DNA of 37,827 bases. Source: a virus. The stretch lies in UHGV virus genome UHGV-0317053; one strand, 5' to 3'. The notes beneath the pieces are model-generated. The model was given only the letters and a program-made list of their open reading frames with translations, made no database searches and was not told where the DNA came from. The position numbers and the translations under genes were made by a program. Position 1 is the stretch's first letter. The number at the start of each line of letters is the position of its first letter. Shown here piece by piece: positions 2,239-37,617 of this stretch.

Positions 2239-2313
2239 GTCCTCTTAGTTAAATGGATATAACGAGCCCCTCCTAAGGGCTAATTGCAGGTTCGATTCCT
2301 GCAGGGGACGCCA
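2239..2313 (+). tRNA. argW: tRNA-Arg (anticodon CCU)
   Basis: 75-nt cloverleaf: acceptor stem GUCCUCU/AGGGGAC, anticodon loop CUCCUAA, T-arm GCAGG-TTCGATT-CCTGC, CCA end; 3' end is G-CCA (discriminator G) rather than A-CCA. Confidence 0.95.
2299..2313 (+). other. attL core (ctgcaggggacgcca) within tRNA 3' end
   Basis: Matches attR copy at 37603..37617 with one mismatch (g vs a). Confidence 0.8.
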
Positions 2314-2474
2314 TTTATCAGTTCGCTCCCATCCGTACCAGTCCGCAAAATTCCCTGAATATCAAGCCTTCCGTAGATTCACAGTTCGTAATGGTTCGCG
2401 TCAGATCGTTGACAGCCGCACACCATGACGGGTAAAAAGTGGATAAAATAATTTTACCCACCGGATTTTTACCC

Positions 2475-3632
2475 ATGCTCACCGTTAAGCAGATTGAAGC
2501 AGCAAAGCCGAAAGAAAAACCATACCGCCTACTCGATGGTAATGGCCTGTACCTTTATGTCCCTGTATCAGGGAAAAAGGTATGGCAGCTTCGCTACAAG
2601 ATTGACGGTAAGGAGAAAATCCTGACTGTCGGAAAATATCCGCTTATGACTTTGCAGGAGGCAAGGGATAAAGCATGGACTGCGAGGAAAGACATCTCGG
2701 TTGGCATCGATCCGGTAAAGGCGAAAAAGGCTTCGTCTAACAACAATTCCTTTAGTGCAATTTACAAGGAATGGTACGAACACAAGAAGCAAGTCTGGTC
2801 AGTAGGGTATGCGACTGAACTTGCAAAAATGTTTGATGACGACATTATACCCATCATCGGCGGCCTTGAAATTCAGGATATTGAGCCGATGCAACTGCTG
2901 GAAGTAATCCGCAGATTTGAAGATCGCGGTGCAATGGAGCGAGCCAACAAAGCACGAAGAAGATGCGGCGAGGTTTTTCGTTACGCTATTGTCACTGGTA
3001 GGGCTAAATATAACCCGGCACCTGACCTTGCTGACGCCATGAAGGGATACCGCAAGAAGAACTTCCCGTTTCTTCCTGCAGACCAGATCCCGGCATTCAA
3101 CAAAGCACTGGCAACATTTTCAGGAAGTATCGTATCGCTCATTGCGACCAAAGTTTTACGCTACACTGCCCTAAGAACGAAAGAGCTTCGTTCCATGCTA
3201 TGGAAGAACGTCGATTTTGAAAACAGGATTATCACCATCGACGCCAGTGTGATGAAAGGACGCAAAATTCATGTGGTCCCGATGTCAGACCAGGTGGTTG
3301 AACTTCTCACTACGCTAAGCTCAATCACCAAACCAGTATCAGAGTTTGTTTTTGCCGGGCGCAACGATAAGAAGAAGCCAATCTGCGAGAACGCGGTATT
3401 GCTTGTGATCAAACAAATCGGCTATGAGGGTCTGGAAAGCGGTCACGGATTCAGGCATGAATTCAGCACAATTATGAACGAGCACGAATGGCCTGCCGAC
3501 GCCATTGAAGTGCAACTGGCACATGCCAACGGCGGTTCTGTGCGTGGAATTTACAACCATGCTCAGTATCTCGATAAGCGCAGAGAAATGATGCAGTGGT
3601 GGGCAGACTGGCTTGATGAAAAGGCATCATAG
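2475..3632 (+). CDS. intS: P4-family tyrosine integrase
   Basis: N-terminus MLTVKQIEAAKPKEKPYRLLDGNGLYLYV typical of P4-type integrases; C-terminal HGFRH box and catalytic Tyr region; directly 3' of the tRNA. ATG at 2475 chosen (385 aa); ORF-track start 2439 is an upstream in-frame extension. Confidence 0.9.
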   Translation: MLTVKQIEAAKPKEKPYRLLDGNGLYLYVPVSGKKVWQLRYKIDGKEKILTVGKYPLMTLQEARDKAWTARKDISVGIDPVKAKKASSNNNSFSAIYKEWYEHKKQVWSVGYATELAKMFDDDIIPIIGGLEIQDIEPMQLLEVIRRFEDRGAMERANKARRRCGEVFRYAIVTGRAKYNPAPDLADAMKGYRKKNFPFLPADQIPAFNKALATFSGSIVSLIATKVLRYTALRTKELRSMLWKNVDFENRIITIDASVMKGRKIHVVPMSDQVVELLTTLSSITKPVSEFVFAGRNDKKKPICENAVLLVIKQIGYEGLESGHGFRHEFSTIMNEHEWPADAIEVQLAHANGGSVRGIYNHAQYLDKRREMMQWWADWLDEKAS

Positions 3633-3990
3633 AAGAGCACAAAGCCTTGCGTCCAGTGCAAAGCTTTGTGTGTCTCAGTTTTGTCCTGTGCGCCAGATAT
3701 TGAATGGCCTCGGCACCGTAACGTATCCGATCGCGCTTCCTGCAGGTGCTGTGCCGGTCATAATTGTTTCAGACCTGATTTCCAGTGACCCTGGAGATAC
3801 TCACGTAATTCACCAGTCGGTTGTAATTAACGCCTCTCGAACAGTTAGTGGATTTTCCGTACGGCAGAGATCAACCGGCACAACAACACCGGCAAACGGC
3901 TACGCATGGGAGATAATATATGCGCCTGTTTAATCCAGTAACAATGACAGAAGTTACCCCCGGTTTTCACGATGACGGAAATTCCAGAAG

Positions 3991-4023
3991 GAAAAATGCT
4001 CGCCGTGAATGACAACGGCGAGC
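3991..4023 (-). terminator. intrinsic terminator ending the late/tail operon
   Basis: 9-bp perfect stem gctcgccgt/acggcgagc, 8-nt loop, followed on the minus strand by ATTTTTCC; 16 bp downstream of the tfa stop. Confidence 0.5.
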
Positions 4024-4038
4024 CTGTATTGATTGATG

Positions 4039-4458
4039 CTACACAGAAGGCGGTACCGGCCAGTCAGGATTAGCGGTATCGACAGCATTCAGTTTGTCGA
4101 TGTAGGCCAGCCAACTGATTAGGCTGGCCTTTTCAGCATCGTTGATGATGCCGAGCAGTAGCTTACTCTGCCAGTTGCTAATTGTGGATTGTGCTTTCTC
4201 CTGTAACGTAGACTTTCTTAATTCTGCCGCAGCGACCAGCTGTTCCTGAGTTAGCGCTGGAGCGTCAATCCATATGGGCAGGCCATCACTTCCCGCCGCG
4301 CGTATCTTCCCCTCTGGTGGCTCTCTTGTAAATTCATTAAAAATAGCTTCATCAACATCAATGCCATCATCAGGCCAGCTCCCTGCCGAAAGATAATTTT
4401 CTTTTAGCAAATACGGATAAAACGCGTTTTTTGATGGGCTGAAAATATAATTAGTCAT
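4039..4458 (-). CDS. tail fiber assembly protein (Tfa)
   Basis: N-terminus MTNYIFSPSKNAFYPY and C-terminal ...SWLAYIDKLNAVDTANPDWPVPP typical of Tfa chaperones; ATG 4458 has AGGAT SD; ORF-track start 4533 is an extension. Confidence 0.8.
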   Translation of the reverse strand: MTNYIFSPSKNAFYPYLLKENYLSAGSWPDDGIDVDEAIFNEFTREPPEGKIRAAGSDGLPIWIDAPALTQEQLVAAAELRKSTLQEKAQSTISNWQSKLLLGIINDAEKASLISWLAYIDKLNAVDTANPDWPVPPSV

Positions 4459-4477
4459 ACTAATATCCTGTACGTAT

Positions 4478-5083
4478 CTAGTTTCCGATTGCCATATAGT
4501 TGAATGCTGGTGATGAATTTGAGCCTCTCGCAAAAAATTGCGAATTGCTCAGCACTGACGTTGCGATATATTCCAGCGACGAAGTACCACCGTCTGTCCC
4601 CAAAACAATGAACGCTGAGTTAGGAAACGCGACGGGAAACGTGTGGGTTGTGCCACTCATTGACGTTGTTGCACTACCCCACTGGATAACCAGACTACTA
4701 CGAGCGCCGCCAATTATCAGCGGCATGTAGGCGTAGCCATTATTCTCCAGTGTACCAGACGAAACACCCGCCAGGGCGATGTCTCCCAAACCAAGGTTTT
4801 CGAGAGCCGTTTTCACCGTGCCATCCGATTTGATATCACCAAACGGATTCTTGCGGCTTAACAGCAGCGCACGAAGCGCGGTAAGCAACTGGTCGTGCCG
4901 CCCCTTCTCCAGGCTGGCACCGGATGCCTCCACCACGCTGCAAAGCTCCTCCTGCAACATGTCAAAGTAGTCATCATCCAGATCGGTGGCAGGCGTGCCT
5001 GTCTGGGGGTTACCACGGGTAAAACCGTTCTTACCCGCGCCGAACTTATCCTTCTGCGCGGTTTTCGTGTCTATACGATGCAT
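4478..5083 (-). CDS. tail fiber protein (short, 201 aa)
   Basis: Conserved fiber N-terminus [40 protein letters not shown]; lies between DUF2313 baseplate gene and tfa. Confidence 0.7.
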
Positions 5084-5086
5084 GGA

Positions 5087-5671
5087 TTACTCCGGATATT
5101 TAAAAATTACGTAGGTATGCGACGGGCAGAGTTTGTTAAGCACACACTCGACAACGGTGTCGCCCCAGATACGCAGCGCGGAATCACAGGGATCGCCACA
5201 TGTCATCCAGGTGGTGTTGGTGGCGGCTGGCATGTTGACCTGCCAGTAATACCGCCATTCCGGCGCATTCACCGCGTCAGTACAGGCAGATGAGCAGGTG
5301 AACGTGCTTTTGTCGTATCGCGTGATGGTAGCGTCTGGTCTGCCCAGGGCAGCAAGCTGTGCAAGATAAAAATTCTCGTTGATGCCGCCCGCCAGGTTAA
5401 CCTTCGCATCCAGCCGTTGCTGACGCTGGCGAAGGGTCTGCGTCCCTGCCGGAATACATTCATCCGGCAGACCGCACAGACGCTCCCAGCGGTTTATCAG
5501 TTCAGTGGTGGTGCGCGGATCCAGCTCCCGCATCAGGGCATCCGCACGCTGATGAACGCGGGTTAATGACGGTGCCGCACCGGCAATCGCCGGATCGCTG
5601 GCTGACCACGCCGGACCGGGGGGCAACAGTGCCGACAACAGACGGATGTAATCATCGTTTGTCACGTCCAT
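5087..5671 (-). CDS. baseplate/tail protein, DUF2313 (Mu gp48 / YmfQ-like)
   Basis: Family recognised from sequence and position after J-like baseplate gene. Confidence 0.65.
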
Positions 5672-6720
5672 GAAATCGTCCCCAGAACCGCCAGTTCATT
5701 TTTTGCAATGGAGATATTGTCTGCCGGTGCAAGCAACTGATGGCTGTATTCCCCGTTCGCACCGGAAATCGCTTCACTGATACGTGACACCTTCAGTTCT
5801 CCCTGCGGATAACCATCACGCAGCAGGAACGAACGCAACTCGGCGGTGATGGCAGCCCGTATTTCTGGTGTGTCCGGCGTCACGCGGATATGAAAATCCA
5901 CCGTATGTGCCACCGGCCTGAACACATACAAATCAGAGCCTGCCACCGGGGCCAGTGGCTCGATATGTTGTCTTGCCGCCGTTTCCGTTGATTCTTCCGG
6001 AATGGGATTAATCAGGTCACTGCTGGCAATCATCACACCGACAGTTCCCGTTCCCATCCAGTGACGGTATGTCCATGCGCGGGTAATGCCGGGCACTTCT
6101 TTAGCCCAGACGACATAGTCCCCGTCAGCCCCGCCCTGCGGCGTCCAGTAATACCGCTCAATGACGCGGGCGCGCCACGTTTCCAGCTCTTCAGTATCAA
6201 ATCCGCCTGTCAGGGTGTCAGCCACACCGGAAGACGGCAGACCATTCACCGGCGTGACCAGGATTAATGCCGTACCGTCGTCAGCGTTACCGACCGCGCC
6301 TGTAGTTGAGCAAGTGATCGGCACACGCAGGACACCACCAGTGCTGGTTGCATCGGCAGTTGCCGTGTACTGAACCAGGTCATCGCGCTGAATAACACTC
6401 CCGGCGGTCACCTTCAGGCCATCGCTGACACCTTCCCAGCGCATATACCCGCTGGCAGCCGTGGCCCCCTTGCGCGGACACCGTTTCATCGCAGCATGTC
6501 GCGCCAGCCAGGACTCATCGCACAGATCAGGCAGCATGTTCATTGCCAGATAATCGATGTAACCGTAAACCGTATGCAGCGCCGCCGCATACACCTTTGC
6601 CCGCACGTCTTCATCCATGCGCCGGAGCGTGTCGCTGACGTCCAGCCTGGCGAATAAATCGTTACGGAGCATACTGATATTTTCTGCCAGCGTCGGGCGC
6701 TGAAATTCACTGTCCGCCAT
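5662..6720 (-). CDS. baseplate J-like protein (Mu gp47-like)
   Basis: 352 aa; position and sequence character of baseplate J family; overlaps neighbours by a few codons. Confidence 0.7.
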
Positions 6721-7135
6721 GCGTTATCGCACTCCACAGATCATCAAAAGAAATCATTACCGGTCCGTCACGACGCCAGAGGGTGATACTGTTACCCAGC
6801 TCATTAATCCCGGTGCGGCGGATATCCAGATCAATACGGGACACCACGCCGTCATCAATCATCCATTGCAGGCATTCGCGGATATACCCCCTTACTGTCT
6901 GCACCAGCTGATTGGTCAGTTTGCTGCGCTGAAGCAGCCACAGTCGGGAGCCGTAACGGTCATTCTGTACCGCAGGCCAGGTATCCCCCCACCATCCCAT
7001 CGGGACGTCGGCGTTGTCATCAGGCTCCGCCCGCCGCCAGGTAAACAGGGAAATCACCACGGCACGGGTCAGCGGATCCAGCGGTGCGCTGGCGCAGGTG
7101 CGTTTACCGTTCACCGTCAGCCACAGTTCCATCAT
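6707..7135 (-). CDS. baseplate protein (Mu gp46-like)
   Basis: 142 aa; conserved position between V-like spike and J-like genes. Confidence 0.6.
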   Translation of the reverse strand: MMELWLTVNGKRTCASAPLDPLTRAVVISLFTWRRAEPDDNADVPMGWWGDTWPAVQNDRYGSRLWLLQRSKLTNQLVQTVRGYIRECLQWMIDDGVVSRIDLDIRRTGINELGNSITLWRRDGPVMISFDDLWSAITHGGQ

Positions 7136-7680
7136 GCCTCCATCGCTTTATCCGGTTTGTCGGTGTTACTGCCCTGACCGTTCTCTCTGTGACGATGCCC
7201 GTTATAGGCAAGCCGCATCGCTGACATGGTAGTGCCGCTGGAGTCGCACAGGTCTTTCACCTGTCCTGTCACTTCCAGGTCCATTTCAAAACGTGCTTTA
7301 GGTGAATTGCGAAACGTGATCGTTTTACCTGCACCGTCCACCACGATCCCCTCCCGGGTCAGCGTCACGGACTGCCCCTGATCGTCATAGACAGCCACCT
7401 CACCCGTCTGCAGCCCTTTCAGGCGGTAGCGCCGGTCCGACACCGTAACAACCACCGCATGAGAACGGTCGCCATCCGGAAACAACACCACCGCTTCCGC
7501 ACCGCTGTTTGCCCTTGCGGTAAAACCGTAGGGTTCAAGATGTTCAATCCCGGCTTTGGGTTCACCGGCAATCAGGGACACATCCACGGTCTGACATTTC
7601 GTGGCGGCACTGATGCTTTTCACCACGGCCCGCCCAATCAGGCCGAGGAGTTGTCGCTGCATGGCTTCAATCGTCCTCAT
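7132..7680 (-). CDS. baseplate assembly/spike protein V-like (Mu gp45-like)
   Basis: 182 aa; position in Mu-type baseplate block. Confidence 0.65.
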   Translation of the reverse strand: MRTIEAMQRQLLGLIGRAVVKSISAATKCQTVDVSLIAGEPKAGIEHLEPYGFTARANSGAEAVVLFPDGDRSHAVVVTVSDRRYRLKGLQTGEVAVYDDQGQSVTLTREGIVVDGAGKTITFRNSPKARFEMDLEVTGQVKDLCDSSGTTMSAMRLAYNGHRHRENGQGSNTDKPDKAMEA

Positions 7681-8759
7681 CAGAACGGGTCCTCCTGTAC
7701 TCTGGCTTTTTTCTTTTTCCGCGCGCCGGGGGCTTCGGGTTCAGGCAGATAAGCATCAGGCGGGCCGACACGGATTTCCGTCAGGGTGCCGTTCTGGTCC
7801 TGAGTAAACGTGACTTCCGAAACAAGCAGTTCGGTATTGTCGAAACCACAGACCGGATCAAAGACAATCACCCGCTGGTTGGGCTGCCACAGCGTACCGT
7901 TACCCTGTCGCCAGCCCTGCACCACATAGGTGGTTTCATCCGTCCGCGCCGCCCGTTGTCGGGCTTCAAAGTCAGCACGGGCAATACAACCTGCCCCCGT
8001 AGCCTGCCCTGTCTGCCTGATATACATCGGACGGTAACGGGCAATAAATGCGTCCTCTGTGCGGGCCCGCAGCGCGGTGGTGGTGGCCTCACCGAAATCA
8101 TCGTCGTTTCCGGCACGCTGCCCCGCCACCTGGTAAACAGAAAATCGCTCCCGGATACTCTTCTCCGTATCGCAGGAAAGGATGTTTTCCCCGAGTACCA
8201 GCGCGGTATGTGCCCGCGTTGAGCCAATACCGCCAATCACCAGCCTGCCGTGCGGGTCGTCATAAGCCAGCGCCTGCTGCTGACCGAGTATTTTGTTAAT
8301 CACCTCGATCACCGTTTCACCGTGATCAGGCTGGACATCAGGAATAACACCCGACGGCGCACCGCTGTTCACCACCTCAATGCCGAAGGGCGCAGCAAGC
8401 GCCTGCGCAATCTGTACCAGTGATCGTCCGTTAAACTGTGTCGGTTCAGCTGCACAATCAATCAGGTCAGCGGTCAGACTGCGTCCGGCAATACCGGTGC
8501 TGACCGAACGGGCATCGTAACGAACGGGCGTCGCCTCCACCCAGCCGGTGATCACCAGCTCATCACCAATCAGCACCTCCACTTTTGAACCGTTTTTAAT
8601 GCGCGGCTGAAGCGTGGTGATACCCTCATCACCCGGCCACTGGCGGGTGATCTCCACACTGAAATCCCGCGCCAGTCGTTCAACACCGGCACCGATGCGC
8701 ACCGATGTCCAGCCATTCCACTCCCGTCCATTTACCCGTAGCGTGACATTGTCGTTCAT
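7680..8759 (-). CDS. baseplate hub / tail protein (Mu gp44, P2 gpD-like)
   Basis: 359 aa; follows DNA-circulation gene as in Mu/SfV tail modules. Confidence 0.65.
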   Translation of the reverse strand: MNDNVTLRVNGREWNGWTSVRIGAGVERLARDFSVEITRQWPGDEGITTLQPRIKNGSKVEVLIGDELVITGWVEATPVRYDARSVSTGIAGRSLTADLIDCAAEPTQFNGRSLVQIAQALAAPFGIEVVNSGAPSGVIPDVQPDHGETVIEVINKILGQQQALAYDDPHGRLVIGGIGSTRAHTALVLGENILSCDTEKSIRERFSVYQVAGQRAGNDDDFGEATTTALRARTEDAFIARYRPMYIRQTGQATGAGCIARADFEARQRAARTDETTYVVQGWRQGNGTLWQPNQRVIVFDPVCGFDNTELLVSEVTFTQDQNGTLTEIRVGPPDAYLPEPEAPGARKKKKARVQEDPF

Positions 8760-10084
8760 TGCACTGGCACCTTCAGAGGGATCACCGGCACAAAGCCGGG
8801 ATGCGTAATGGCATTACGCCGGATAATGTCCGCATCACGCGCCGCGTTATCAAACCAGGTCGCCGCCAGCACCAGCGCGGGTAAAACCTCATCCGGTGTG
8901 CGCTGAATGATCCGTGCAGACTGTTCAAGGCGCGTGTTGATATCCGCATTCAGATCTGCTTTCACCCGGCGCAGTGCCAGAAACAGCGCATCACTGGTTG
9001 TACGGGACAACTCCTTATCAATTGCCGTATTCAGTGTGTCGCGAATGTCAGTCAGTTCTTCCCACGTCGGCAGGTCAACCGTGTTTTTCACCGCCGGTGC
9101 ATTGTTCAGTGCCGGATGCGTGACGGAAGGCCAGCCAGTGCTCTGCGCAGGTGTTGTTGCCTGCCCCACTGCGGAATTCTGCATCACCGCGGAAGTTGTT
9201 GGCGCAGGCAATCGGGTGACGGCATACGCCGCTTCGCTGATTGCGGTCGTACGAAGGGTGCTGGCAACCACGTTACGCTGCTGCGTCGCCGTGGCGGTAG
9301 TTTTACTGTCCGTTTTCCAGACGCCGCGCGGTTGCAGATCGCTGCCTAGGCTGACACCGGAAAGCGTTTTGATCATGGTGACCAGGTCGCTGGCGTTACC
9401 ATAAAGGCGTTTCCCGGTACGCCACATTTTCTGCACCTGCTCAACGAAATTTTTGCCTGACGATGGTGGCGGCAGAAGTACCGAGATATCCCCCTGCAAC
9501 AGCCTGGCAGCATCCGATACGGCAGAATCCACCACTTTCATCGCATCAGAAACATACCCAAGCATTGTGCTGGCATTACCAACGACGTCGTTCTGCACAA
9601 AATCCGCCACGCCATCGATACTGAAACTGCTGAAGCTGTCACTGATGCAGTCATCCAGTGCAGAACAGGATGACATCAGCGTCTGCGCCGTCGCCGCACC
9701 TGATGTGGGGTAAGAAAGTTCTCCTGCTTCGACAAACTTCAGGTCAAAGCGGACAATACGCCCTTCACTCTTCGATGTGCTGACCCTAACTTCCCCGTCA
9801 ACACAGACTTTCAGCTCACCGTAAGTCGGATGGACAAGCGTGCCGGGACCGGGTTTATTCAGCGCGTCAATCAGGCGATCGCGCTGGTCAAAGCAGTCAT
9901 CTCCCACCACATAAGCTGTGATGGACGGGCGGAAAGTGATTTTCCCCAGGTCTTCGGTATAGGGTTTGTCGCGGTTCGGGTATTCGTGCGTTTCCACACG
10001 ACGACCGGTTCCCGCACTTTCTTCTTCAACCTTAAACGGCACACCGCGAAATGACGCGTCCTGAAGTCTGTCTTTCCACGTCAT
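8756..10084 (-). CDS. DNA circulation protein (Mu gp43-like)
   Basis: N-terminus MTWKDRLQDASFRGVPF typical of family; ATG 10084 has GGAG SD; ORF-track start 10126 would run through a terminator-like hairpin. Confidence 0.65.
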   Translation of the reverse strand: MTWKDRLQDASFRGVPFKVEEESAGTGRRVETHEYPNRDKPYTEDLGKITFRPSITAYVVGDDCFDQRDRLIDALNKPGPGTLVHPTYGELKVCVDGEVRVSTSKSEGRIVRFDLKFVEAGELSYPTSGAATAQTLMSSCSALDDCISDSFSSFSIDGVADFVQNDVVGNASTMLGYVSDAMKVVDSAVSDAARLLQGDISVLLPPPSSGKNFVEQVQKMWRTGKRLYGNASDLVTMIKTLSGVSLGSDLQPRGVWKTDSKTTATATQQRNVVASTLRTTAISEAAYAVTRLPAPTTSAVMQNSAVGQATTPAQSTGWPSVTHPALNNAPAVKNTVDLPTWEELTDIRDTLNTAIDKELSRTTSDALFLALRRVKADLNADINTRLEQSARIIQRTPDEVLPALVLAATWFDNAARDADIIRRNAITHPGFVPVIPLKVPVQ

Positions 10085-10099
10085 ATAAACTCCGTACAT

Positions 10100-10121
10100 A
10101 AAAAATCCCACCGGAGTGGGA
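10100..10121 (-). terminator. terminator-like hairpin between tape measure and DNA-circulation genes
   Basis: stem cccac/gtggg with 4-nt loop, followed on minus strand by T6. Confidence 0.35.
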
Positions 10122-10144
10122 CTCATTAACAGATTAATTTTTCA

Positions 10145-28620: not shown

Positions 28621-28639
28621 ACTTCGTTTCTCCTCTTAA

Positions 28640-29029: not shown

Positions 29030-29352
29030 ACTTTCAGGTCCCTCTCATGTAACCAGTGGGTTGCACGCAGCCTTGCGTTTTCCTCACCGGCAAGCAGTGC
29101 GCGGATAATCCCGACCGCCTCGCTGTCGTCGTCCTTCACCGCGGTATGAAGCGTTATCCCCCGGGCCATGCCACGCTTTATCGTGATGACGCCTTTTTTC
29201 TCCAGTGCGCGAAGATGCTCCACCGCTGCATTCACCGAACGGTATCCCAGCATGGTTGCCACCTCCTGATTGGTTGGCGGGAAGCCACGTTCTTTCTGAT
29301 AAGAAATCAGCATATCCAGCACCTGCTGCTGGCATTGAGTTAACGTCGTCAT
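29026..29352 (-). CDS. LexA N-terminal DNA-binding domain-only protein
   Basis: 108 aa; QQQVLDMLISYQKERGFPPTNQEVATMLGYRSVNAAVEHLRALEKKGVI closely resembles LexA winged-helix domain; no S24 peptidase domain. Confidence 0.65.
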   Translation of the reverse strand: MTTLTQCQQQVLDMLISYQKERGFPPTNQEVATMLGYRSVNAAVEHLRALEKKGVITIKRGMARGITLHTAVKDDDSEAVGIIRALLAGEENARLRATHWLHERDLKV

Positions 29353-30002: not shown

Positions 30003-30496
30003 TAAGCCCCCACGTAATTCCCTGACAGATACCACTCTTCACCCGATGCAGCGCGCTTGCTGCTTTTCCGTAAGCACCGCTCACGACGCGCCAGAAAATT
30101 GTTTCGTTCTGGCTGGGAGTGGCTTTCACGGAATGCCGCCATCCACACGGTTGCAGCACGACGGTATAAGCCCCTGGACTCCAGTTCTTCCGCCTGGCGG
30201 GTCAGGCACAAAATCACACGGGGATCGTTAGTGCCGACATAGAAATTGCGCACAGGTCTGGTTTCACGAACTGGTTGTGGTTCCGGTTCCTGCGCTCTCT
30301 CAGTCAGGCGCGGGAAATGTCTGCGTGTATCTCCTTCACAACGGTGAGCCACACGCCCACTCTGACGTAACTTGCTTGCTGACTGCAGAACGCGCTGCCG
30401 TGAGTAACCGGCAAAAGCATCCGCAATATCTCCGGAAGTACAGCCCGGATGGGCTTCAATGAATTTCTGAACGTCATTCAAAAGACTCATGCTCAC
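30002..30496 (-). CDS. yfdN: YfdN-like protein with PerC/ANR-like C-terminal motif
   Basis: 164 aa (same length as K-12 YfdN as recalled); motif GLYRRAATVWMAAF resembles PerC/Pch regulators. Confidence 0.45.
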   Translation of the reverse strand: MSMSLLNDVQKFIEAHPGCTSGDIADAFAGYSRQRVLQSASKLRQSGRVAHRCEGDTRRHFPRLTERAQEPEPQPVRETRPVRNFYVGTNDPRVILCLTRQAEELESRGLYRRAATVWMAAFRESHSQPERNNFLARRERCLRKSSKRAASGEEWYLSGNYVGA

Positions 30497-31434
30497 CCCC
30501 TGAATCCTGCCGGGATCTGGCTGTAGTCCACGTTGTCGTAACTGGCTTTGAAGTACGGGTCTTCGCGTTTTTCGGTGTACGTGCTGACGGACGGCGATAA
30601 GCGCAGGGAAAGCTCATCCCATTTTTCCCGCAGCTTCGACGGGCTGAGCACGTTACGGCACCAGAACGGATCGCGACTGACGCGGCTGTACATCTCGCAG
30701 ATTTGTTTATGAGTACGACCATCCTGCACACACATCAGGCGAATTTCGTTTGCCCAGGCTGTCCAGTTCGGTTCTTTGGGACGAACCACCTCGCCGTCAC
30801 ATTCGGCGGCCTGCTCGTACAGGGCGATGATTTTTTTCCAGAGCCACTGTGCGCAGGTCAAATCATCCTGCGTTCCCCACTGGCGCTTTTTAGGGCTGAA
30901 TACAACCGCATCAGGATGGCGAGTTAAAAACTCCTGTTCAGCCGTCTGCGTGTCCGGTTGCGAAGCGTCCGGACGAGAAGTTTTTTTATCTGACGGATCA
31001 TGTTTTGATTTTACTGACGGATCCCCGCCAGATTCTGACGGGTGAAAAACCGCTTTTTTGCCAGATTTCGACGCATCAAATTTTGACGGGTCAGATTTTG
31101 ATGCGTCAGATTTTGACGGGTCAGAATCTGACAGTTGAGAAAATGCCGCTGCCTGAAGCTTCGCAACGTTAAGCTGATAAACATTCGACGCATTGCGGTT
31201 ACCCTGGCGACGCGCCTTACGTGTTAACCAGCCTTCTGCTTCCAGCCGTGCGATAGCCGTTCTGACGGTACTCATCCCCGCGCCAATCTGGCGGGCAATG
31301 GTTTCAATTGATGGCCAGCACACACCTTCGTCATTACTGAAATCAGCCAGGCGGGCCATAATTGCCACGCTGGATAATTTCATGCCTGACGCAGCGCAAC
31401 CATCCCATACATAGCCGGTTAATTTAGTGCTCAT
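30493..31434 (-). CDS. replication initiator (lambda O-like, HTH) containing origin iterons
   Basis: N-terminal winged-helix region; internal low-complexity DPSKSDASKS repeats encoded by DNA iterons. Confidence 0.7.
   Translation of the reverse strand: MSTKLTGYVWDGCAASGMKLSSVAIMARLADFSNDEGVCWPSIETIARQIGAGMSTVRTAIARLEAEGWLTRKARRQGNRNASNVYQLNVAKLQAAAFSQLSDSDPSKSDASKSDPSKFDASKSGKKAVFHPSESGGDPSVKSKHDPSDKKTSRPDASQPDTQTAEQEFLTRHPDAVVFSPKKRQWGTQDDLTCAQWLWKKIIALYEQAAECDGEVVRPKEPNWTAWANEIRLMCVQDGRTHKQICEMYSRVSRDPFWCRNVLSPSKLREKWDELSLRLSPSVSTYTEKREDPYFKASYDNVDYSQIPAGFRG
30987..31135. repeat. iteron array (putative replication origin) inside the replication gene
   Basis: at least 6 direct copies of ~(a/t)ttt(t/c)tgacgg(g/a)tca plus adjacent A/T-rich stretch gaaaaaccgcttttttg. 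Confidence 0.65.
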
Positions 31435-31443
31435 GACCGACCT

Positions 31444-31782
31444 CTATTTCCCTGAATTTACGACGAAACTGTTCGAGCGGGCTGAAGCACTCATGCTCAT
31501 AGCCTTCACGGAGGTAGATAACCCGTTGTGTTTCCGGCTCCCAACGAATGACTCTGACGGGCACTCCGTAGTGATCTTTGAACCAGCGGTTAACTTGTCG
31601 CAAAGGACTGTCTCCTTCTGCCGGTTGAAATCACCCACAGCCCACTCGGCAAAGCTGTGGGTTACAATTTCCCTGTCACCTGGTACATTTACTGCATAGC
31701 AATACTCCACCTTCGCTTTTCCACCCAGTACAGGAAGCGCAATCAGTTGCGAGCGACGGTAGTGTGTTGTTAAACTGTTCAT
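31444..31782 (-). CDS. hypothetical protein (112 aa)
   Basis: ATG overlaps CII-like stop (ATGA); encloses a 9-bp perfect inverted repeat; coding status uncertain. Confidence 0.35.
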
Positions 31783-32375
31783 GCGTTAGTTTCTCCACAG
31801 TCACGACACGCCACGGCGCCCGGAGCTGCACACTCGCGGGCGTCATTACTTTCTGAAATGCAAAAAATTTTGTAGACCAGTGCTGCATGCTCCTGCAGCT
31901 TCGAAATTGAGAGATACAGCTCGTCGTTAATTGCTGTCTTCTCATGCGGTTCCACCACACCGTCTTCGATTGCCGAACGAATCTGTCTGGAATAACTGCC
32001 AATCTGTTCAATGACTTCCAGCAGGCGCTGGTTAATATCGGCGTTGTCCACATCCTCGACGTCAGGAAGAGACACAAAGACGCCATTTGCAGACTGCGCC
32101 ACAGCGTCAGCAATGAAGTGAGTTCCACCAGCACGTTGCAAAATCATTGCCCATCCCAGCGGGAAAATCTGATCGCCATCGGCACGAAGGCGGTTAAATA
32201 ATGCGTTTTCTGTTACATCCAGCCAGTCAGCTGCTTCAGCGTAACCACCCGGCAACGCTGCGATAGTTTTTCTGACAGCTTTCACGTACCACTCAGGCTG
32301 TTTTTCTACTTTCCAGTGATGCTTACCCACGGTTAGCCTCATCGTTCTGTGGTTTCTGTTAATCGATTTATCCAT
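31779..32375 (-). CDS. CII-like regulatory protein (phage 186 CII / YdaT-type)
   Basis: ATG overlaps cro stop (ATGGATAA); sequence pattern resembles remembered 186 CII family. Confidence 0.5.
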
Positions 32376-32568
32376 TAGATTTTTCATAAAGCTCAGGTTT
32401 AAATGGCAACCGTCCGCAAGTTCTATATGCAGCTTCTGCTGCACGTCCTTTTGGAATTAACTGGCCCGGACGGTTTCGCCACTGATAAACGGCTTCAGTT
32501 GTTATGCCGAAAAAAGCAGCAACTTTCTCAATACTGCCGAAGTAGCTTTCGATATCGTCAGTTGTCAT
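32368..32568 (-). CDS. cro: Cro-like repressor
   Basis: 66 aa HTH protein divergent from cI; GGAGGG SD. Confidence 0.75.
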   Translation of the reverse strand: MTTDDIESYFGSIEKVAAFFGITTEAVYQWRNRPGQLIPKGRAAEAAYRTCGRLPFKPELYEKSNG

Positions 32569-32577
32569 ACGCCCTCC

Positions 32578-32634
32578 AAACTAAGTTTTATTAGATGCTA
32601 ATTACAAATCTATCTTTGGTCAATAAAAACTAAG
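32578..32634. promoter_or_regulatory. cI-cro operator region with repeated AAACTAAG motifs
   Basis: AAACTAAG at 32578..32585 and 32627..32634 flanking the pR hexamers; short palindromes ATTAG-N3-CTAAT and CTAAG-N4-CTTAG. Confidence 0.4.
32595..32623 (-). promoter_or_regulatory. candidate pR promoter
   Basis: minus-strand -35 TTGACC, 17-bp spacer, -10 TAGCAT, upstream of cro. Confidence 0.4.
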
Positions 32635-32665
32635 ATTACTTAGCAATTCAAGAAATGGTGCTCCT

Positions 32666-33292
32666 ATGGAAACGGTTGGTCAGCGTATAAAAGCTCTGAG
32701 AAGAGTTACCGGAACGTCCCAGAAAGAATTGGGTAAATTTTGTGGAGTAAGCGACGTTGCTGTGGGGTACTGGGAGAAAGACATCAATACCCCTGGTGGG
32801 GAGGCACTTTCGAAATTAGCGAAGTTCTTCAATACGTCAATAGACTACATTCTTTATGGTGCTGAGTTTGAAGGCAAACTCGTCACAAACATGCGCAGAG
32901 TTCCTGTAATATCGTGGGTTCAGGCTGGGCAGTTTACTGAGTGCAGGGCAGCAGAAGTGTTTAGTGAAGTGGACAAGTGGGTAGATACATCATTAAAGAT
33001 TGGTGATAACTCATTTGCATTAGAGGTTAAAGGTGACTCCATGACTAACCCTAATGGCCTCCCAACAATACCAGAAGGCGCAACAGTGATTGTAGATCCA
33101 GATGCAGAACCTCGTCATGGAAAAATAGTCATCGCTCGACTTGATGGAACAAACGAAGCTACAGTAAAAAAATTAGTCATCGATGGCCCTCAAAAGTTTT
33201 TAGTGCCATTAAATCCTCGGTATCCCAACATCCCTATCAATGGTAATTGCCTTATCATTGGTGTAGTCAAAGGAGTTCAATACGAACTCTAA
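32666..33292 (+). CDS. cI: CI-like repressor (HTH-XRE N-domain plus S24 LexA-like peptidase C-domain)
   Basis: 208 aa; HTH (SQKELGKFCGVSDVAVGYWE), Ala-Gly cleavage site (QAGQ), Ser/Lys dyad region (GDSM ... KK). Confidence 0.85.
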   Translation: METVGQRIKALRRVTGTSQKELGKFCGVSDVAVGYWEKDINTPGGEALSKLAKFFNTSIDYILYGAEFEGKLVTNMRRVPVISWVQAGQFTECRAAEVFSEVDKWVDTSLKIGDNSFALEVKGDSMTNPNGLPTIPEGATVIVDPDAEPRHGKIVIARLDGTNEATVKKLVIDGPQKFLVPLNPRYPNIPINGNCLIIGVVKGVQYEL

Positions 33293-33305
33293 GACCTCTC
33301 TTCTC

Positions 33306-33373
33306 TAACTAAGGCACCGAACTAAGAAAAGTTTGGTGTTTTCTCTTGCCATAATAACTAAGTTAAGTTAGAT
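33306..33373 (+). promoter_or_regulatory. candidate early-left promoter/operator (pL/OL analog)
   Basis: three AACTAAG copies (33306, 33319, 33355) and -35 TTGCCA / 17 bp / -10 TAGATT (33345..33373) immediately after cI. Confidence 0.35.
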
Positions 33374-33454
33374 TTTATATCAAAGATAACGAACAGGCAG
33401 GACGCCCACGAAGTAGCCGCCTGGGGCATATGAAGTCCAGGATGATTCGTTAGC

Positions 33455-33480
33455 AACAAAAAAGCGCCCTACAGGACGCT
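33455..33480 (-). terminator. intrinsic terminator for minus-strand transcript of orf144
   Basis: 7-bp stem including one G-U pair on the minus-strand RNA, 4-nt loop, T-run; on the plus strand the stem has a C-A mismatch and no T-run. Confidence 0.5.
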
Positions 33481-33539
33481 TAGCTCTTTAACAATCTGGT
33501 CCCCATCAACAAGTAACTGATAACTTGAGGAGATGTGAA

Positions 33540-33746
33540 ATGCACAAAACAGAACCCAAAATCGTCGCGCCTGGCTACACAGATGAGGAAATTTATGAGT
33601 GGATGACAAAGAAGCTGGCAGCTATAAACCAGCTTCGTGAAGTGCTGTCTTATCGACAGGAAACAATAGACTCCTTAAAAAAACTGGATCAGGAAATCAC
33701 GGTTTTATCACAGGATGTTACTTTAGATATTGTGCAGACAAATTAG
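33540..33746 (+). CDS. hypothetical 68-aa protein at the first-gene position of the early-left operon
   Basis: GAGGAG SD 7 nt upstream of ATG 33540; acidic, coiled-coil-like; 3' end overlaps orf144 convergently by 29 bp. Confidence 0.5.
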   Translation: MHKTEPKIVAPGYTDEEIYEWMTKKLAAINQLREVLSYRQETIDSLKKLDQEITVLSQDVTLDIVQTN

Positions 33747-34152
33747 GATCCCATTCATTTTCGTCAAAATCATCAAAGTGATGAATTTGTGATCTCCAGT
33801 CTCGATAATCTAAAAATTTCTGGGCGGTTACGCTTATTTTATCAAGTGTGAGTTCATCCTGAATTGAAAGAAGAAGTTCATCAAATTTCATCTCATTAAT
33901 CTGTTTTGGCATCCAGTGATGCTTCATCAGAATAAGGTGAACCAGAGCCTTTTTCCCATTCAACTGATTATAGGGAGTGCCGAATTTCTTCCGGTGCTCA
34001 TGTAAGACAAGGTCCAAAAGAGTAAGTAATGTTGCCCTTGATTCAACTTTGCTTATTTCGACTGATGACACTACCCCACTGATTTCAATGCCCCGATACT
34101 TTCCAACATTTTCACAGTGGGATTTGTACAGCGTATAGATATTACCGGACAT
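33718..34152 (-). CDS. hypothetical 144-aa protein in AT-rich island (candidate exclusion/defense factor)
   Basis: lone minus-strand gene with AAGGA SD, own terminator; low GC relative to flanks; C-terminal RDWRSQIH (Rx6H-like) motif. Confidence 0.6.
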   Translation of the reverse strand: MSGNIYTLYKSHCENVGKYRGIEISGVVSSVEISKVESRATLLTLLDLVLHEHRKKFGTPYNQLNGKKALVHLILMKHHWMPKQINEMKFDELLLSIQDELTLDKISVTAQKFLDYRDWRSQIHHFDDFDENEWDPNLSAQYLK

Positions 34153-34436
34153 TTCTTTTCCTTTTGCGTTGTTGGGGATAACCAGATTAACCGAATCCTT
34201 GTTGTTGGGGAATAACTAGGTCCACCTCGCCTGATGTGGCTAAAAGCAGGCACATAACAGCTAAGTATTTTCAACCAGAGAGAATCCTTAGCGTTGTGGT
34301 GAATGCGGCTCAGCGCACGCGGGTTAAGGTTGAGGCTGACAGTCGACCTTCTGTGGATACCCACCCGCCTGGTGTGCAACCTTCGCCAGGCACCGGGAGG
34401 CACCCGGCACCACAACTTTATGCTGTGTGTAGTCTT

Positions 34437-34483
34437 GGCGGTACCAGCTTGTACCCTTGCTTCCGGCTGGTACCGTCCTTTTT
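34437..34483 (+). terminator. intrinsic terminator-like hairpin in early-left leader
   Basis: 12-bp GC-rich stem (ggcggtaccagc / gctggtaccgtc) with 17-nt loop, then T5. Confidence 0.5.
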
Positions 34484-34485
34484 AC

Positions 34486-34570
34486 AAAACAGAGAAGAGC
34501 ATCACCGGACGACGGGCTCATAACCCAATCCATCCGGGCGGCAGTCACCGCAGGTGTTCTTCTCTGTTTT
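34486..34570 (+). terminator. second long-range stem with A-tract/T-tract flanks
   Basis: acagagaaga pairs with ttcttctctgt across ~57 nt GC-rich loop, followed by TTTT. Confidence 0.35.
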
Positions 34571-34620
34571 GTGGAGAAACTAACCGACCTTGCAGGGTCG
34601 ATATGATGAGGAGCAGCAAA

Positions 34621-34983
34621 ATGGCTAGCGAACGCAGTACTGATGTGCAGGCATTTATCGGGGAGCTGGACGGCGGCGTATTTGAAACCAAAATCGGCGC
34701 AGTTCTCAGTGAAGTCGCTTCCGGTGTGATGAACACGAAAACCAAAGGTAAGGTCTCGCTCAACCTGGAAATCGAACCGTTTGATGAGAACCGAGTGAAA
34801 ATCAAACACAAACTCTCATATGTTCGCCCGACTAACCGCGGGAAAATTTCCGAAGAAGACACCACCGAAACGCCAATGTATGTCAATCGCGGTGGTCGCC
34901 TGACTATTCTGCAGGAAGACCAGGGACAGTTACTGACTCTTGCCGGTGAACCTGACGGAAAACTCCGCGCAGCAGGTCGTTAA
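34621..34983 (+). CDS. yfdP: YfdP-like protein
   Basis: 120 aa; GAGGAG SD 7 nt upstream of ATG 34621; ORF-track start 34303 is an unlikely GC-rich extension; precedes yfdQ as in K-12. Confidence 0.6.
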   Translation: MASERSTDVQAFIGELDGGVFETKIGAVLSEVASGVMNTKTKGKVSLNLEIEPFDENRVKIKHKLSYVRPTNRGKISEEDTTETPMYVNRGGRLTILQEDQGQLLTLAGEPDGKLRAAGR

Positions 34984-35048
34984 TATCGTTTTTAATTAAC
35001 TGATTATTTATCTCATCACTGAATATCTTTATATAGTGAGGACTTATT

Positions 35049-35873
35049 ATGTCTCAGAACTTAGACGCAACCGCAATTAATCAAATCCATGCCCTTATTT
35101 CTGCTCAGGGTGTTAATGAAATTATCAGTAAGATTGGTGCCGATGCTGTGGCATTGCCTGAGAATTTCCGCATTCATGATCTGGAAAAATTTAATTTAAA
35201 TCGCTTCCGTTTCCGTGGTGCGCTTTCCACTGCCAGCATCGATGACTTTACCCGTTATTCTAAAGATCTTGCAGATGAAGGCACCCGCTGCTTTATCGAT
35301 GCTGATAATATGCGTGCCGTCAGTGTGCTTAACCTGGGTACTATTGATGAACCAGGTCACGCAGATAACACCGCCACACTCAAACTGAAAAAGACAGCAC
35401 CGTTCTCTGCTCTGTTGTCTGTTAACGGCGAGCGTAACTCCCAGAAGTCACTGGCAGAATGGATTGAAGACTGGGCCGACTATCTTGTGGGCTTTGATGC
35501 TAATGGTGACGCTATTCAGGCAACAAAAGCGGCTGCGGCTGTCCGTAAAATCACGATTGAAGCAAACCAGACCGCTGATTTTGAAGATAATGACTTCAGC
35601 GGCAAACGCTCCCTGATGGAGTCTGTCGAAGCGAAGACCAAAGACATTATGCCAGTGACATTTGAATTTAAATGCGTTCCGTTTGAAGGTCTGAAAGAAC
35701 GTCCGTTTAAATTACGCCTCAGTATTATCACTGGCGATCGTCCTGTACTGGTTCTGCGCATTATTCAGCTGGAGGCGGTGCAGGAAGAAATGGCTAACGA
35801 ATTTCGTGATCTGCTTGTTGAGAAATTCAAGGACAGCAAAGTAGAAACCTTTATTGGTACTTTCACCGCCTGA
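35049..35873 (+). CDS. yfdQ: YfdQ family protein (DUF2303)
   Basis: 274 aa, same length and order as K-12 CPS-53 yfdQ. Confidence 0.7.
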
Positions 35874-36000
35874 TTTCATTACTGCAAATGCCCCTGCGGG
35901 GGCATTTATGGAAACGTAATTTACTCAATAATCGCCGGATGGTGAGGGATTCTTTTTACCAGAATTCAGCGCGGTGCAGCGCATATACGTGGAGAACAAA

Positions 36001-36537
36001 ATGTCATTTATTAAAACTTTTTCCGGGAAGCATTTTTATTATGACAGGATAAATAAAGACGACATCGATATTAACGATATCGCGGTTTCCCTTTCAAATA
36101 TCTGTCGCTTTGCCGGTCATCTTTCGCACTTCTACAGCGTCGCCCAACATGCGGTTCTTTGCAGCCAGCTGGTGCCGCAGGAATTTGCTTTTGAAGCGTT
36201 AATGCATGATGCAACAGAAGCGTATTGCCAGGACATTCCCGCACCACTGAAACGCCTTCTTCCTGACTATAAACAAATGGAAGAAAAAATAGACGCCGTA
36301 ATCCGTGAGAAATACGGGTTACCCCCAGTTATGGGTACGCCCGTGAAATATGCCGATCTCATCATGCTGGCAACCGAACGCCGCGATCTCGGGCTTGATG
36401 ATGGCTCTTTCTGGCCTGTACTGGAAGGTATCCCGGCAACAGAGATGTTCAACGTGATTCCACTGGCACCGGGCCATGCCTACGGGATGTTTATGGAACG
36501 CTTTAACGAGTTATCGGAGTTACGCAAATGCGCATGA
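36001..36537 (+). CDS. yfdR: HD-domain phosphohydrolase YfdR-like
   Basis: HD-type His/Asp motifs (FAGHLSHFYSVAQHAV, MHDATEAY); 178 aa from ATG 36001. Confidence 0.7.
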   Translation: MSFIKTFSGKHFYYDRINKDDIDINDIAVSLSNICRFAGHLSHFYSVAQHAVLCSQLVPQEFAFEALMHDATEAYCQDIPAPLKRLLPDYKQMEEKIDAVIREKYGLPPVMGTPVKYADLIMLATERRDLGLDDGSFWPVLEGIPATEMFNVIPLAPGHAYGMFMERFNELSELRKCA

Positions 36538-36890
36538 ATGTTTTCGAAATGGAAGGGTTTCTTCGTGGGAGATGTGTACCGCGAGATCTGAAAGTAAATG
36601 AAACAGATGCTGAATACCTAGTGCGTAAATTCGATGCGCTTGAAGCTAAATGTGCAGCACAGGAAAACAAAGTAATACCAGTGTCAACTGAACTGCCACC
36701 AGCAAATGAAAGTGTTTTGTTATTCGATGCTAACGGAGAAGGCTGGCTAATTGGCTGGCGTTCTCTCTGGTACACCTGGGGACAAAAAGAAACCGGAGAA
36801 TGGCAGTGGACATTTCAGGTCGGGGACCTTGAAAACGTCAATATCACTCACTGGGCAGTAATGCCAAAAGCACCGGAGGCTGGAGCATAA
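36528..36890 (+). CDS. yfdS: YfdS-like protein (DUF551)
   Basis: 120 aa; order as in K-12. Confidence 0.65.
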   Translation: MRMNVFEMEGFLRGRCVPRDLKVNETDAEYLVRKFDALEAKCAAQENKVIPVSTELPPANESVLLFDANGEGWLIGWRSLWYTWGQKETGEWQWTFQVGDLENVNITHWAVMPKAPEAGA

Positions 36891-37195
36891 TGACCACTTT
36901 TACCGACAAAGAACTGATTAAAGAAATTAAAGAGCGTATCAGCAGCCTTGACGTGCGAAACGATATTGAGCGCCGTGCTTATGAAATCGCACTCCTATCT
37001 CTGGAAGTAGAACCAGATGAACGCGAAGCTTATGAATTATTCATGGAAAAGCGTTTCGGTGACTTAGTAGATCGTCGGAGAGCAAAAAACGGCGATAACG
37101 AATACATGGCATGGGATATGACTCTCGGTTGGATCGTCTGGCAGCAACGAGCTGGTATCCATTTTTCAACAATGTCACAGCAAGAGGTGAAATAA
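36890..37195 (+). CDS. yfdT: YfdT-like protein
   Basis: 101 aa; order as in K-12. Confidence 0.65.
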   Translation: MTTFTDKELIKEIKERISSLDVRNDIERRAYEIALLSLEVEPDEREAYELFMEKRFGDLVDRRRAKNGDNEYMAWDMTLGWIVWQQRAGIHFSTMSQQEVK

Positions 37196-37323
37196 TGGAG
37201 CCATACAGCCTCACACTCGATGAGGCATTTTCATTTATCAAGATATCCAGACCTACCATCGCCGCATCAATGCGGTTTTTTTTATTACCTGATTTGCAGG
37301 TTCGATTCCCTATTCGGAGATAG
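37195..37323 (+). CDS. ypdJ: small ORF (YpdJ-like, possible excisionase remnant)
   Basis: 42 codons, ATG overlaps yfdT stop; contains a terminator hairpin and a tRNA T-arm-like fragment, so coding status doubtful. Confidence 0.3.
   Translation: MEPYSLTLDEAFSFIKISRPTIAASMRFFLLPDLQVRFPIRR
37262..37283 (+). terminator. intrinsic terminator upstream of torI
   Basis: stem ccgca/tgcgg, 4-nt loop, followed by T8. Confidence 0.55.
37294..37309 (+). other. 16-bp exact copy of the argW T-arm (ttgcaggttcgattcc)
   Basis: identical to tRNA positions 2284..2299; lies ~300 bp inside the prophage from attR. Confidence 0.8.
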
Positions 37324-37328
37324 CACTC

Positions 37329-37529
37329 ATGCAACACGAACTACAACCTGATTCACTGGTTGATTTGAAATTCATCATGGCTGATACTGGCTTTGGTAAA
37401 ACCTTCATCTATGACCGGATTAAGTCCGGCGACCTGCCAAAAGCCAAAGTTATCCACGGGCGAGCAAGATGGTTATATCGTGACCATTGTGAATTCAAAA
37501 ATAAGCTCTTAAGCCGCGCCAATGGGTAA
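37329..37529 (+). CDS. torI: excisionase / recombination directionality factor (TorI, AlpA-family HTH)
   Basis: 66 aa; matches remembered TorI of KplE1; adjacent to attR. Confidence 0.8.
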   Translation: MQHELQPDSLVDLKFIMADTGFGKTFIYDRIKSGDLPKAKVIHGRARWLYRDHCEFKNKLLSRANG

Positions 37530-37602
37530 AATAGCGGGTAAAATATTTCTCACATCTAAAAAACACCATTCCAATCAATCCCCTGCTACTCCAGGTAGAT
37601 GT

Positions 37603-37617
37603 CTGCAGGGGACACCA
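37603..37617 (+). other. attR core (ctgcaggggacacca)
   Basis: displaced tRNA 3' end with A discriminator and CCA. Confidence 0.8.

Follow-up and report, generated by a model that had tools for sequence, protein, structure and literature searches.

What did Escherichia coli K-12 lose at the tRNA gene argW? The prophage CPS-53 (KplE1) found there in K-12 is annotated at 10,215 bp, and the DNA analysed here, the virus genome UHGV-0317053 (37,827 nucleotides, hereafter the window), carries at the same site a prophage of 35,304 bp, or 35,320 bp counting both attachment cores. An original prediction, made from the letters of this stretch alone, had described it as an apparently intact, possibly inducible SfV-like phage and as a reference for what K-12, with just a remnant of about 10 kb, had lost; the annotated length of CPS-53 bears out that figure. 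To judge from sequence comparison, the window very probably contains a temperate phage genome that is structurally complete and sits in the 3' end of argW, combining a body of the SfV/SfIV type with a recombination module of the KplE1/HK620/Sf6 type. More tentatively, and with somewhat less than even confidence, we propose that it may be a living, inducible counterpart of the ancestor of K-12 KplE1.

The insertion site and the recombination module

The argW-dsdC interval is organised as in K-12, with the prophage inserted in the 3' end of argW and dsdC beyond. The window ends within the 3' end of dsdC, and both chromosomal flanks are the correct neighbours of argW. The two ends of the element are formed by the following features.

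182-937, minus strand: mlaA, chromosomal flank at the window start
1231-2163, plus strand: yfdC, chromosomal flank
2239-2313, plus strand: argW, tRNA-Arg(CCU), integration target (ARAGORN; Rfam tRNA, 62 bits; K-12 alignment)
2299-2314, plus strand: attL core CTGCAGGGGACGCCAT, 15/16 against the published KplE1 core, mismatch G at 2310
2315-2474, plus strand: attL arm with the intS promoter region; identity to the K-12 attL, mapped by experiment (Panis 2010), is about 96%
2475-3632, plus strand: intS, tyrosine integrase of 385 aa (Pfam Arm-DNA-bind_3, Phage_int_M, Phage_integrase)
37102-37257, plus strand: xis remnant of lambda/SfV type (ypdJ in K-12), covering residues 1-52 of the SfV 'xis' annotation
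37261-37284, plus strand: intrinsic terminator, GCCGCATCAATGCGGT followed by a T run, perfect and immediately upstream of torI
37329-37529, plus strand: torI, recombination directionality factor, beside attR at the opposite prophage end from intS
37603-37618, plus strand: attR core CTGCAGGGGACACCAT, 16/16, the displaced original 3' end of argW (pawZ in K-12)

The 16-nt core of KplE1 was published by Panis et al. 2010 as CTGCAGGGGACACCAT (PMC2951348). The last 15 nt of argW fall within the attL core; 0.01 core matches would be expected in the window by chance, and no third match was present anywhere in it with up to 2 mismatches allowed. Both the tRNA call and the core positions agree with the original prediction of a prophage at argW spanning 2299-37617. 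Its 'imperfect 15-bp att repeats' were correctly placed, the repeat itself being the published 16-nt core at 15/16. GC content is 51-59% across most late and early-right genes and about 48% in the flanks, and in an Rfam search of the window the argW tRNA was the sole known RNA family.

IntS is identical to K-12 IntS at 382/385 residues and to HK620 Int at 377/385, and TorI is 66/66 identical to both K-12 TorI and HK620 HkaC. The intS gene adjoins attL and is transcribed away from it, its predicted promoter being overlapped by the attL arm of 160 nt, of which the final 51 nt preceding the intS ATG are identical to K-12. Overall, identity to the K-12 module, which has been dissected by experiment, is 96-99% across the attL and attR regions. 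A duplicated core, IntS by attL and TorI by attR are all found, as in the argW recombination module of the KplE1/HK620 type, whose excision depends on IntS, TorI and IHF. In the K-12 and HK620 modules IntS is made from its own attL-overlapping promoter and TorI directs excision (PMC2951348, PMC3509656), and 'numerous (pro)phages' at argW share the module (PMC3509656). The window offers a natural full-length context for this well-studied IntS/TorI pair. By comparison with these modules, excision is predicted to give an attP junction reading torI...CTGCAGGGGACACCAT...TTATCAGTTCGC...intS and a repaired attB reading argW...CTGCAGGGGACACCATCCTTGTG...dsdC.

The module is shared at 96-98% with HK620, Sf6, CUS-3 and Kapi1 (torI-attP-int, window 37278-37618 and 2299-3624), the HK620 match taking in its annotated attP core. 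Outside the module, HK620, Sf6 and CUS-3 are short-tailed, P22-like podoviruses, unlike the contractile-tailed, SfV-like element described here. The join between the two parts is visible, with SfV homology ending at 37256 and HK620 homology beginning at 37278, and the truncated xis upstream of torI marks, on this comparison, the replacement of an SfV-type xis-int-attP module. The terminator that follows it is intact in the window, and the stem of its K-12 equivalent is degenerate; this terminator may bear on the silencing of torI in the lysogen.

Position 2310, the sole mismatch between attL and attR, is the discriminator base of argW, which is G73 here and A73 in K-12. An A stands at the equivalent position in the 99.97% identical prophage copy from an isolate sequencing run, in K-12, in strain 1217KP and in the HK620 attP, and therefore the G is a private single-nucleotide polymorphism or an assembly error; apart from the window, G is found only in a metagenome contig that is identical to it. 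A polymorphism of attP marking the crossover point was considered and rejected on account of the same four sequences.

A second exact 16-nt piece of argW, TTGCAGGTTCGATTCC from its T-arm, was seen at 37294-37309, shortly before the start of torI; chance would give 0.01 such matches. This piece and the att core at 37603-37618 jointly tile the last 31 nt of argW (2284-2314) with a 1-nt overlap. The two argW-derived pieces are split by 293 bp containing torI, an arrangement found alike in K-12, HK620 and 1217KP, which suggests that the ancestral attP had a longer stretch of tRNA homology, into which torI was inserted. The HK620 annotation places a CII-dependent 'phage integration' promoter at the T-arm spot.

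Gene content and completeness of the phage body

Between the tail-fibre end and the immunity region lie the genes below.

5087-10099, minus strand: Mu-type baseplate genes gp48, gp47/J, gp46, gp45/V, P hub and N 'DNA circularisation' (Pfam)
10145-14394, minus strand: tape measure, tail chaperone, tube, sheath, DUF2635 protein
14403-19694, minus strand: tail terminator, neck, head closure, connector, capsid, protease, portal, ymfR
16423-17628, minus strand: HK97-type major capsid protein (Pfam Phage_capsid, 1e-79)
17643-18329, minus strand: prohead protease (Pfam Peptidase_S78, 1e-31)
18271-19512, minus strand: portal (Pfam Phage_portal, 4e-108)
19706-22406, minus strand: TerL, TerS, HNH endonuclease
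22987-24311, minus strand: lysis cassette of Rz1, Rz, endolysin R and lambda-family holin S
24389-26800, minus strand: N6/N4 DNA methyltransferase, small open reading frame (ORF; phrog_331) and Q
26048-26800, minus strand: antiterminator Q
26814-30496, minus strand: nin-like region of DUF968/HNHc, KilA-N, RusA, LexA-domain protein, Dam and PerC-like genes
30493-31434, minus strand: O-like replication initiator of 313 aa
31026-31141: five to six 15-bp iterons inside the initiator gene
region 30493-31603, minus strand: DUF4222 ORF beside the initiator

In order to assess completeness, all 53 annotated SfV proteins were compared with the window by tblastn. One full-length alignment each was obtained for TerS, HNH, the neck and tail proteins, sheath, tube, chaperone, tape measure, the six baseplate proteins, the lysis genes, the methyltransferase, Q, the nin proteins and the homologues of yfdP-yfdT. 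Most of the matched proteins are 92-100% identical (Rz, Rz1 and the KilA-N protein 79-85%), the six baseplate proteins reaching 98-100% against SfV orf15-20. TerL aligned over 566/577 residues, up to a mosaic junction, beyond which portal and capsid are a different HK97-type allele, 25-28% identical to SfV. The SfV protease had no tblastn match in the window and another allele is present instead; the portal/protease/capsid region is about 96% identical to SfIV at the nucleotide level. SfV gtrABV, int, cro, orf33, orf37 and orf38 gave no significant tblastn match, nor did xis apart from the 52-residue remnant. The endolysin R has no Pfam match; we kept the assignment because of its 94% full-length identity to SfV R, a RefSeq homologue of glycoside hydrolase family 24 and a WSEGT motif.

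We delimited 54 ORFs. Each has a start and no stop other than the terminal one, and they are tightly spaced, as in operons. No insertion sequence or transposase was detected in the element, and neither of the defects that would, according to the original prediction, have refuted it on re-annotation, frameshifts and internal stops, occurs in these ORFs. Small features that decay early are intact as well. The tail chaperone has a -1 slippery heptamer TTTTTTC at about 12140, five codons before its stop, past which the -1 frame is open as far as the tape-measure gene; Rz1 has its lipobox, LLTGC; the iterons are in place; and the SfV genome ends (cos) map to 21997/21998, between HNH and TerS, at a conserved junction. 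Thus the modules that had been listed, from integration through torI, are all located and open by ORF calls, Pfam and the SfV comparison, and the description 'apparently intact' agrees with the presence of att sites, integrase, directionality factor, full-length essential genes, and repressor with operator palindromes.

With nucleotide identity required to be at least 85%, 92% of the element can be matched to SfV, SfIV or the initial 2.2 kb of HK620, and three pieces are left over (3625-4781, 22410-23001 and 32355-33387). By this comparison the body is a mosaic of the SfV/SfIV type, in which the head is HK97-like, the contractile tail Mu-like and the early region lambdoid. With SfV, SfIV, SfII and SfI the window shares the cos/HNH/terminase region, the lysis genes, Q, nin and the yfdPQRST homologues. 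Its Mu-like tail is that of SfV (97-100% protein identity), its HK97-like head allele that of SfIV and SfII, and its replication gene allele that of SfIV. SfV encodes YfdQRST homologues (PMC4776307). The SfV group differs in having gtrA, gtrB and a type-specific gtr beside attP, none of which the window carries, and in its own Int/Xis (SfV Int had no tblastn match in the window), cI/cro type, fibre tip and tfa; the window differs in an extra low-GC ORF between Rz1 and HNH. The serotype-converting phages of the SfV group integrate at thrW. The label 'SfV-like' is thus apt for the body, by coverage and gene order, and does not extend to the strict serotype-converting SfV group, outside which the element falls because it has no gtr genes, carries argW/IntS/TorI in place of the SfV-type Int/Xis and has a different cI/cro.

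The tail-fibre end

The region between intS and the baseplate genes comprises three features.

3633-4038: stretch without a called gene, with faint plus-strand relics of another tfa/fibre tip
4039-4458, minus strand: tail fibre assembly protein tfa, 139 aa (Pfam Caudo_TAP, 1.7e-27); a 139-aa gene also in the compared sequences L005 and L006
4478-5083, minus strand: short tail fibre of 201 aa with a rare tip allele, gp53-like/StfP family

The N-terminal part of the fibre, about 100 aa, is 94-98% identical to SfIV and to L001. Over its full length the protein has 6,582 matches, is about 65% identical to e14 StfP and is 93% identical to one partial E. coli protein; by these matches the 201-aa fibre is an ordinary member of the very large gp53-like/StfP family. 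The segment 3711-4781, made up of fibre tip and tfa, had no megablast match in the 5,426 complete E. coli genomes surveyed, and blastn against the phage collection gave one weak match only, of about 100 nt at 74.5%, to the tfa of Erwinia phage EtG. The exact protein of the fibre tip/tfa allele occurs in just 4 contigs. Without a close nucleotide relative, fibre tip and tfa may possibly confer a new receptor specificity.

The faint relics at 3633-4038 look like those of an older tail-fibre/tfa cassette on the opposite strand. Within 3600-5100 there is no ORF of a Gin/Pin-family serine invertase, and a search for inverted crossover sites at the fibre end returned just short, weak inverted repeats; an active invertible fibre segment of the Mu G or e14 P type was rejected because both an invertase and convincing inverted repeats are missing. 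An ORF of 106 aa at 3613-3933 (plus strand), overlapping intS at the latter's end, had looked like the alternative tip of such a segment. This reading was rejected: besides the missing invertase and repeats, the ORF has no family match, a single homologue among 5.8 billion proteins and no call in near-identical contigs. In other E. coli strains, genes for 'tail fiber assembly protein' have a 3' end that matches 3625-3710, and the relic arrangement resembles K-12 (tfaS facing yfdK) and SfIV (gp21 facing gp22), with no invertase. Next to intS we found no gtr or other O-antigen-modifying genes, and tblastn with SfV GtrA, GtrB and GtrV gave no match in the window.

The immunity region and the proposed mode of action

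The immunity and early-left regions contain these features.

31779-32330, minus strand: CII-like gene (Pfam Phage_CP76, CII family)
32368-32568, minus strand: cro (matches P22_Cro)
32666-33292, plus strand: cI (HTH_3 and Peptidase_S24)
33346-33374, plus strand: candidate left promoter (PL), TTGCCA-17-TAGATT, just downstream of cI
33525-33746, plus strand: small ORF, phrog_1744
33718-34152, minus strand: small ORF, phrog_5286
34621-37195, plus strand: early-left genes yfdP, yfdQ, yfdR, yfdS and yfdT, 95-99% identical to the K-12 proteins

The cI protein is assigned as a LexA-type self-cleaving repressor because it combines helix-turn-helix and S24 domains with an Ala-Gly site (VQAGQ), a serine motif (GDSM) and a lysine motif (VKKL). 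A palindrome CTAAG-N4-YTTAG occurs just three times in the 37.8 kb, at 32581 and 32630 within the 97-bp spacer between cro and cI, and at 33358-33371, overlapping the candidate PL. We infer from these positions that the first two are candidate right operators (OR) and the third a candidate left operator (OL/PL). The cI/cro block (32355-33387) is 95.5% identical to mEp460_4F5 and 99.6% to phage Kati, and E. coli prophages at other sites carry the identical cI protein extremely often (18,358 index blocks). Between cI and yfdP (33300-34600) the DNA has about 40% GC and convergent small ORFs, and its content varies among relatives.

Based on experimentally studied homologues, from which the mode of action is likely to carry over, we propose that the LexA-type cI would hold OR and OL shut, and that its self-cleavage upon SOS induction would free the right promoter (PR) and PL. 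Transcription from PR would then express cro, the CII-like gene, the O-like initiator, the nin genes and Q; the initiator would act on the iterons inside its own gene and Q would turn on the late genes. PL would serve an ORF of 68-73 aa, yfdPQRST and, by read-through of the terminator at 37261-37284, torI. Finally, the genome would be excised at the 16-nt cores by TorI and by IntS, the latter expressed from its own promoter, which overlaps attL.

On the gene content, viability is plausible and we lean slightly towards it. Several points weigh against an element that is whole and alive. The read-through from PL into torI is a guess, because the intact intrinsic terminator intervenes between yfdT and torI and no N-like antiterminator was identified in the element. 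The fibre tip and tfa (3711-4781) are without a close relative in any cultured phage, and open reading frames are compatible with disabling missense or regulatory mutations. Moreover, a metagenome-assembled contig of 38,188 bp ends in a stretch 100% identical to window 1-11083, the comparison covering that part of the contig, and so long-range contiguity rests partly on an assembler.

The alternative that survives best, which we regard as rather unlikely, is that of a recently inactivated cryptic prophage, disabled by a missense mutation, by a regulatory defect such as unexpressed torI, or by a fibre/tfa cassette unfit for the baseplate. The scarcity of the fibre tip/tfa allele and its lack of a nucleotide relative in the phage collection would fit such a history, as would the terminator before torI and the relics at 3633-4038, which speak of a past rearrangement at that end. 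Against inactivation stand the 54 uninterrupted ORFs, the intact slippery site, lipobox, iterons, operators and cI cleavage motifs, and the 94-99% identity of most genes to SfV and SfIV, which are plaque-forming or induced phages. If the element is indeed a living, inducible prophage, the IntS/TorI switch could be studied in its natural context, including the control of torI by cI and PL through an intact terminator.

Relation to CPS-53/KplE1 of E. coli K-12

The alignment of K-12 to the window consists of four blocks, collinear and 96-98% identical.

window 1-3685: flank, argW, intS
window 4782-5021: yfdL pseudogene, corresponding to the fibre's N-terminal part
window 29736-31201: yfdM, yfdN, yfdO
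window 34602-37827: yfdP to torI, attR, dsdC

From these blocks it follows that K-12 is without two stretches of window sequence, one of 24.7 kb (5022-29735: tail, head, packaging, lysis, Q and most of nin) and one of 3.4 kb (31202-34601: initiator N-terminus, CII-like gene, cro, cI and PL). The junction 5021/29736 has a 3-nt microhomology, GTA (K-12 L002 8122-8124), and the junction 31201/34602 a 2-nt one, TA (K-12 L002 9586-9587); such microhomology at both K-12 junctions is typical of illegitimate deletion. The genes that K-12 retains can be identified: YfdM, a fragment, comprises 91 aa of the Dam protein (217 aa), YfdN is the PerC-like protein (162/164 identical), and YfdO, at 122/122 identity, corresponds to the last 122 aa of the initiator (313 aa). 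K-12 CPS-53 also resembles the window in its argW site, 16-nt core, near-identical att arms, IntS, TorI, yfdP-T and ypdJ. The two differ between intS and the fibre gene, where K-12 has the gtr genes yfdGHI, tfaS and yfdK and the window has 1.1 kb of different DNA.

On this alignment K-12 CPS-53/KplE1 is a decayed relative of such a prophage. An improbable alternative is that the two share no descent, the window holding another phage with a widely shared argW module and its likeness to K-12 arising from module sharing, as happens with the unrelated P22-like podoviruses HK620, Sf6 and CUS-3, in which the intS/torI module is 96-98% identical, and with yfdPQRST, which is also found in prophages at thrW and icd. 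This would not account for the body fragments yfdL, yfdM, yfdN, yfdO and ypdJ, which K-12 keeps in the window's order and orientation, nor is it needed at the two K-12 junctions, which simple deletions explain. Hence the claim that the stretch is a reference for what K-12 lost holds good, because the four collinear blocks name the missing sequence. Read as a decayed relative of this prophage, CPS-53/KplE1 can be set against a gene-by-gene map of its losses (two missing stretches and one differing cassette), in which K-12 y-genes acquire an identity: yfdL as fibre N-terminus, yfdM as Dam fragment, yfdO as initiator C-terminus and ypdJ as xis remnant.

Occurrence in public data

With the criterion of a single place covering at least 80% of window 1-25000, a prophage of this type was found in at least 32 of the 5,426 complete E. 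coli genomes; all 32 sit at argW, because window 1-25000 takes in the chromosomal flank. The right half of the window was covered to at least 80% in 45 of the genomes. The left 11 kb are 99.97% identical to a 46.6-kb contig from the isolate sequencing run ERR1218691, which extends further, and 20000-37254 matches strain KW21 at 99.5%, the left half being about 97% identical to other strains. The prophage is neither rare nor new, and near-identical copies exist in public assemblies.

Strain 1217KP (NZ_CM173879.1, PGAP-annotated) shares the argW-to-dsdC site and gene order. The argW prophages of the 1217KP type and the predicted prophage vB_EcoM-689R6 (ON470584) are about 97% identical over 82-93% of each window half, and differ from the window in the cargo between intS and tfa, the fibre tip, the Q allele, a porin or other cargo near Q and the Rz1-HNH ORF. 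vB_EcoM-689R6 was considered as evidence of inducibility and dropped, its source being a survey of phages in clinical-isolate genomes whose available part gives no sign of induction.

It is very improbable that the window is partly a chimera, in which an assembler joined related lambdoid or SfV-like prophages sharing near-identical modules: such an origin would suit the metagenome contig ending with window 1-11083, whose 38,188 bp are close in length to the window's 37,827, the early region that is so common at other sites, and the unequal identity of the two halves (KW21 against other strains), and it is contradicted by the isolate contig that runs on beyond the left 11 kb, by complete genomes such as 1217KP that keep the order argW-intS...tail-head-lysis-Q-rep-cI-yfdPQRST-torI-dsdC, and by the correct argW neighbours on both flanks. 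In other respects there is nothing unusual about the element, a mosaic temperate phage whose type abounds in public E. coli genomes, but it makes a useful reference.

Accessory genes

Two further ORFs of the body deserve separate mention.

22534-22908, plus strand: low-GC cargo ORF of 124 aa, on the opposite strand to its neighbours, with no family match
29026-29352, minus strand: protein of 108 aa with a LexA DNA-binding domain only (PF01726, 2e-19) and no peptidase domain

The first lies in an insert of about 590 bp (22410-23001) with about 35-40% GC between Rz1 and the HNH gene. The 124-aa ORF has no Pfam, PHROG or PADLOC match. Its insert occurs in just 15 of the 5,426 complete genomes and in neither SfV nor SfIV, and probably represents cargo (a moron). 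PADLOC on the unassigned ORFs of the window returned no defence system and one weak match in the KilA-N region. The LexA-domain-only protein is kept in SfV (orf42) and in all relatives seen.

The interval between Q and holin holds an N6/N4 methyltransferase in the window and in SfV, and a porin in strain 1217KP. Among relatives sharing the exact cI it holds KwaA/KwaB (Kiwa-like) in L015, a KAP NTPase in L016 and an SDH-family protease in L012, and it looks like a hotspot for cargo.

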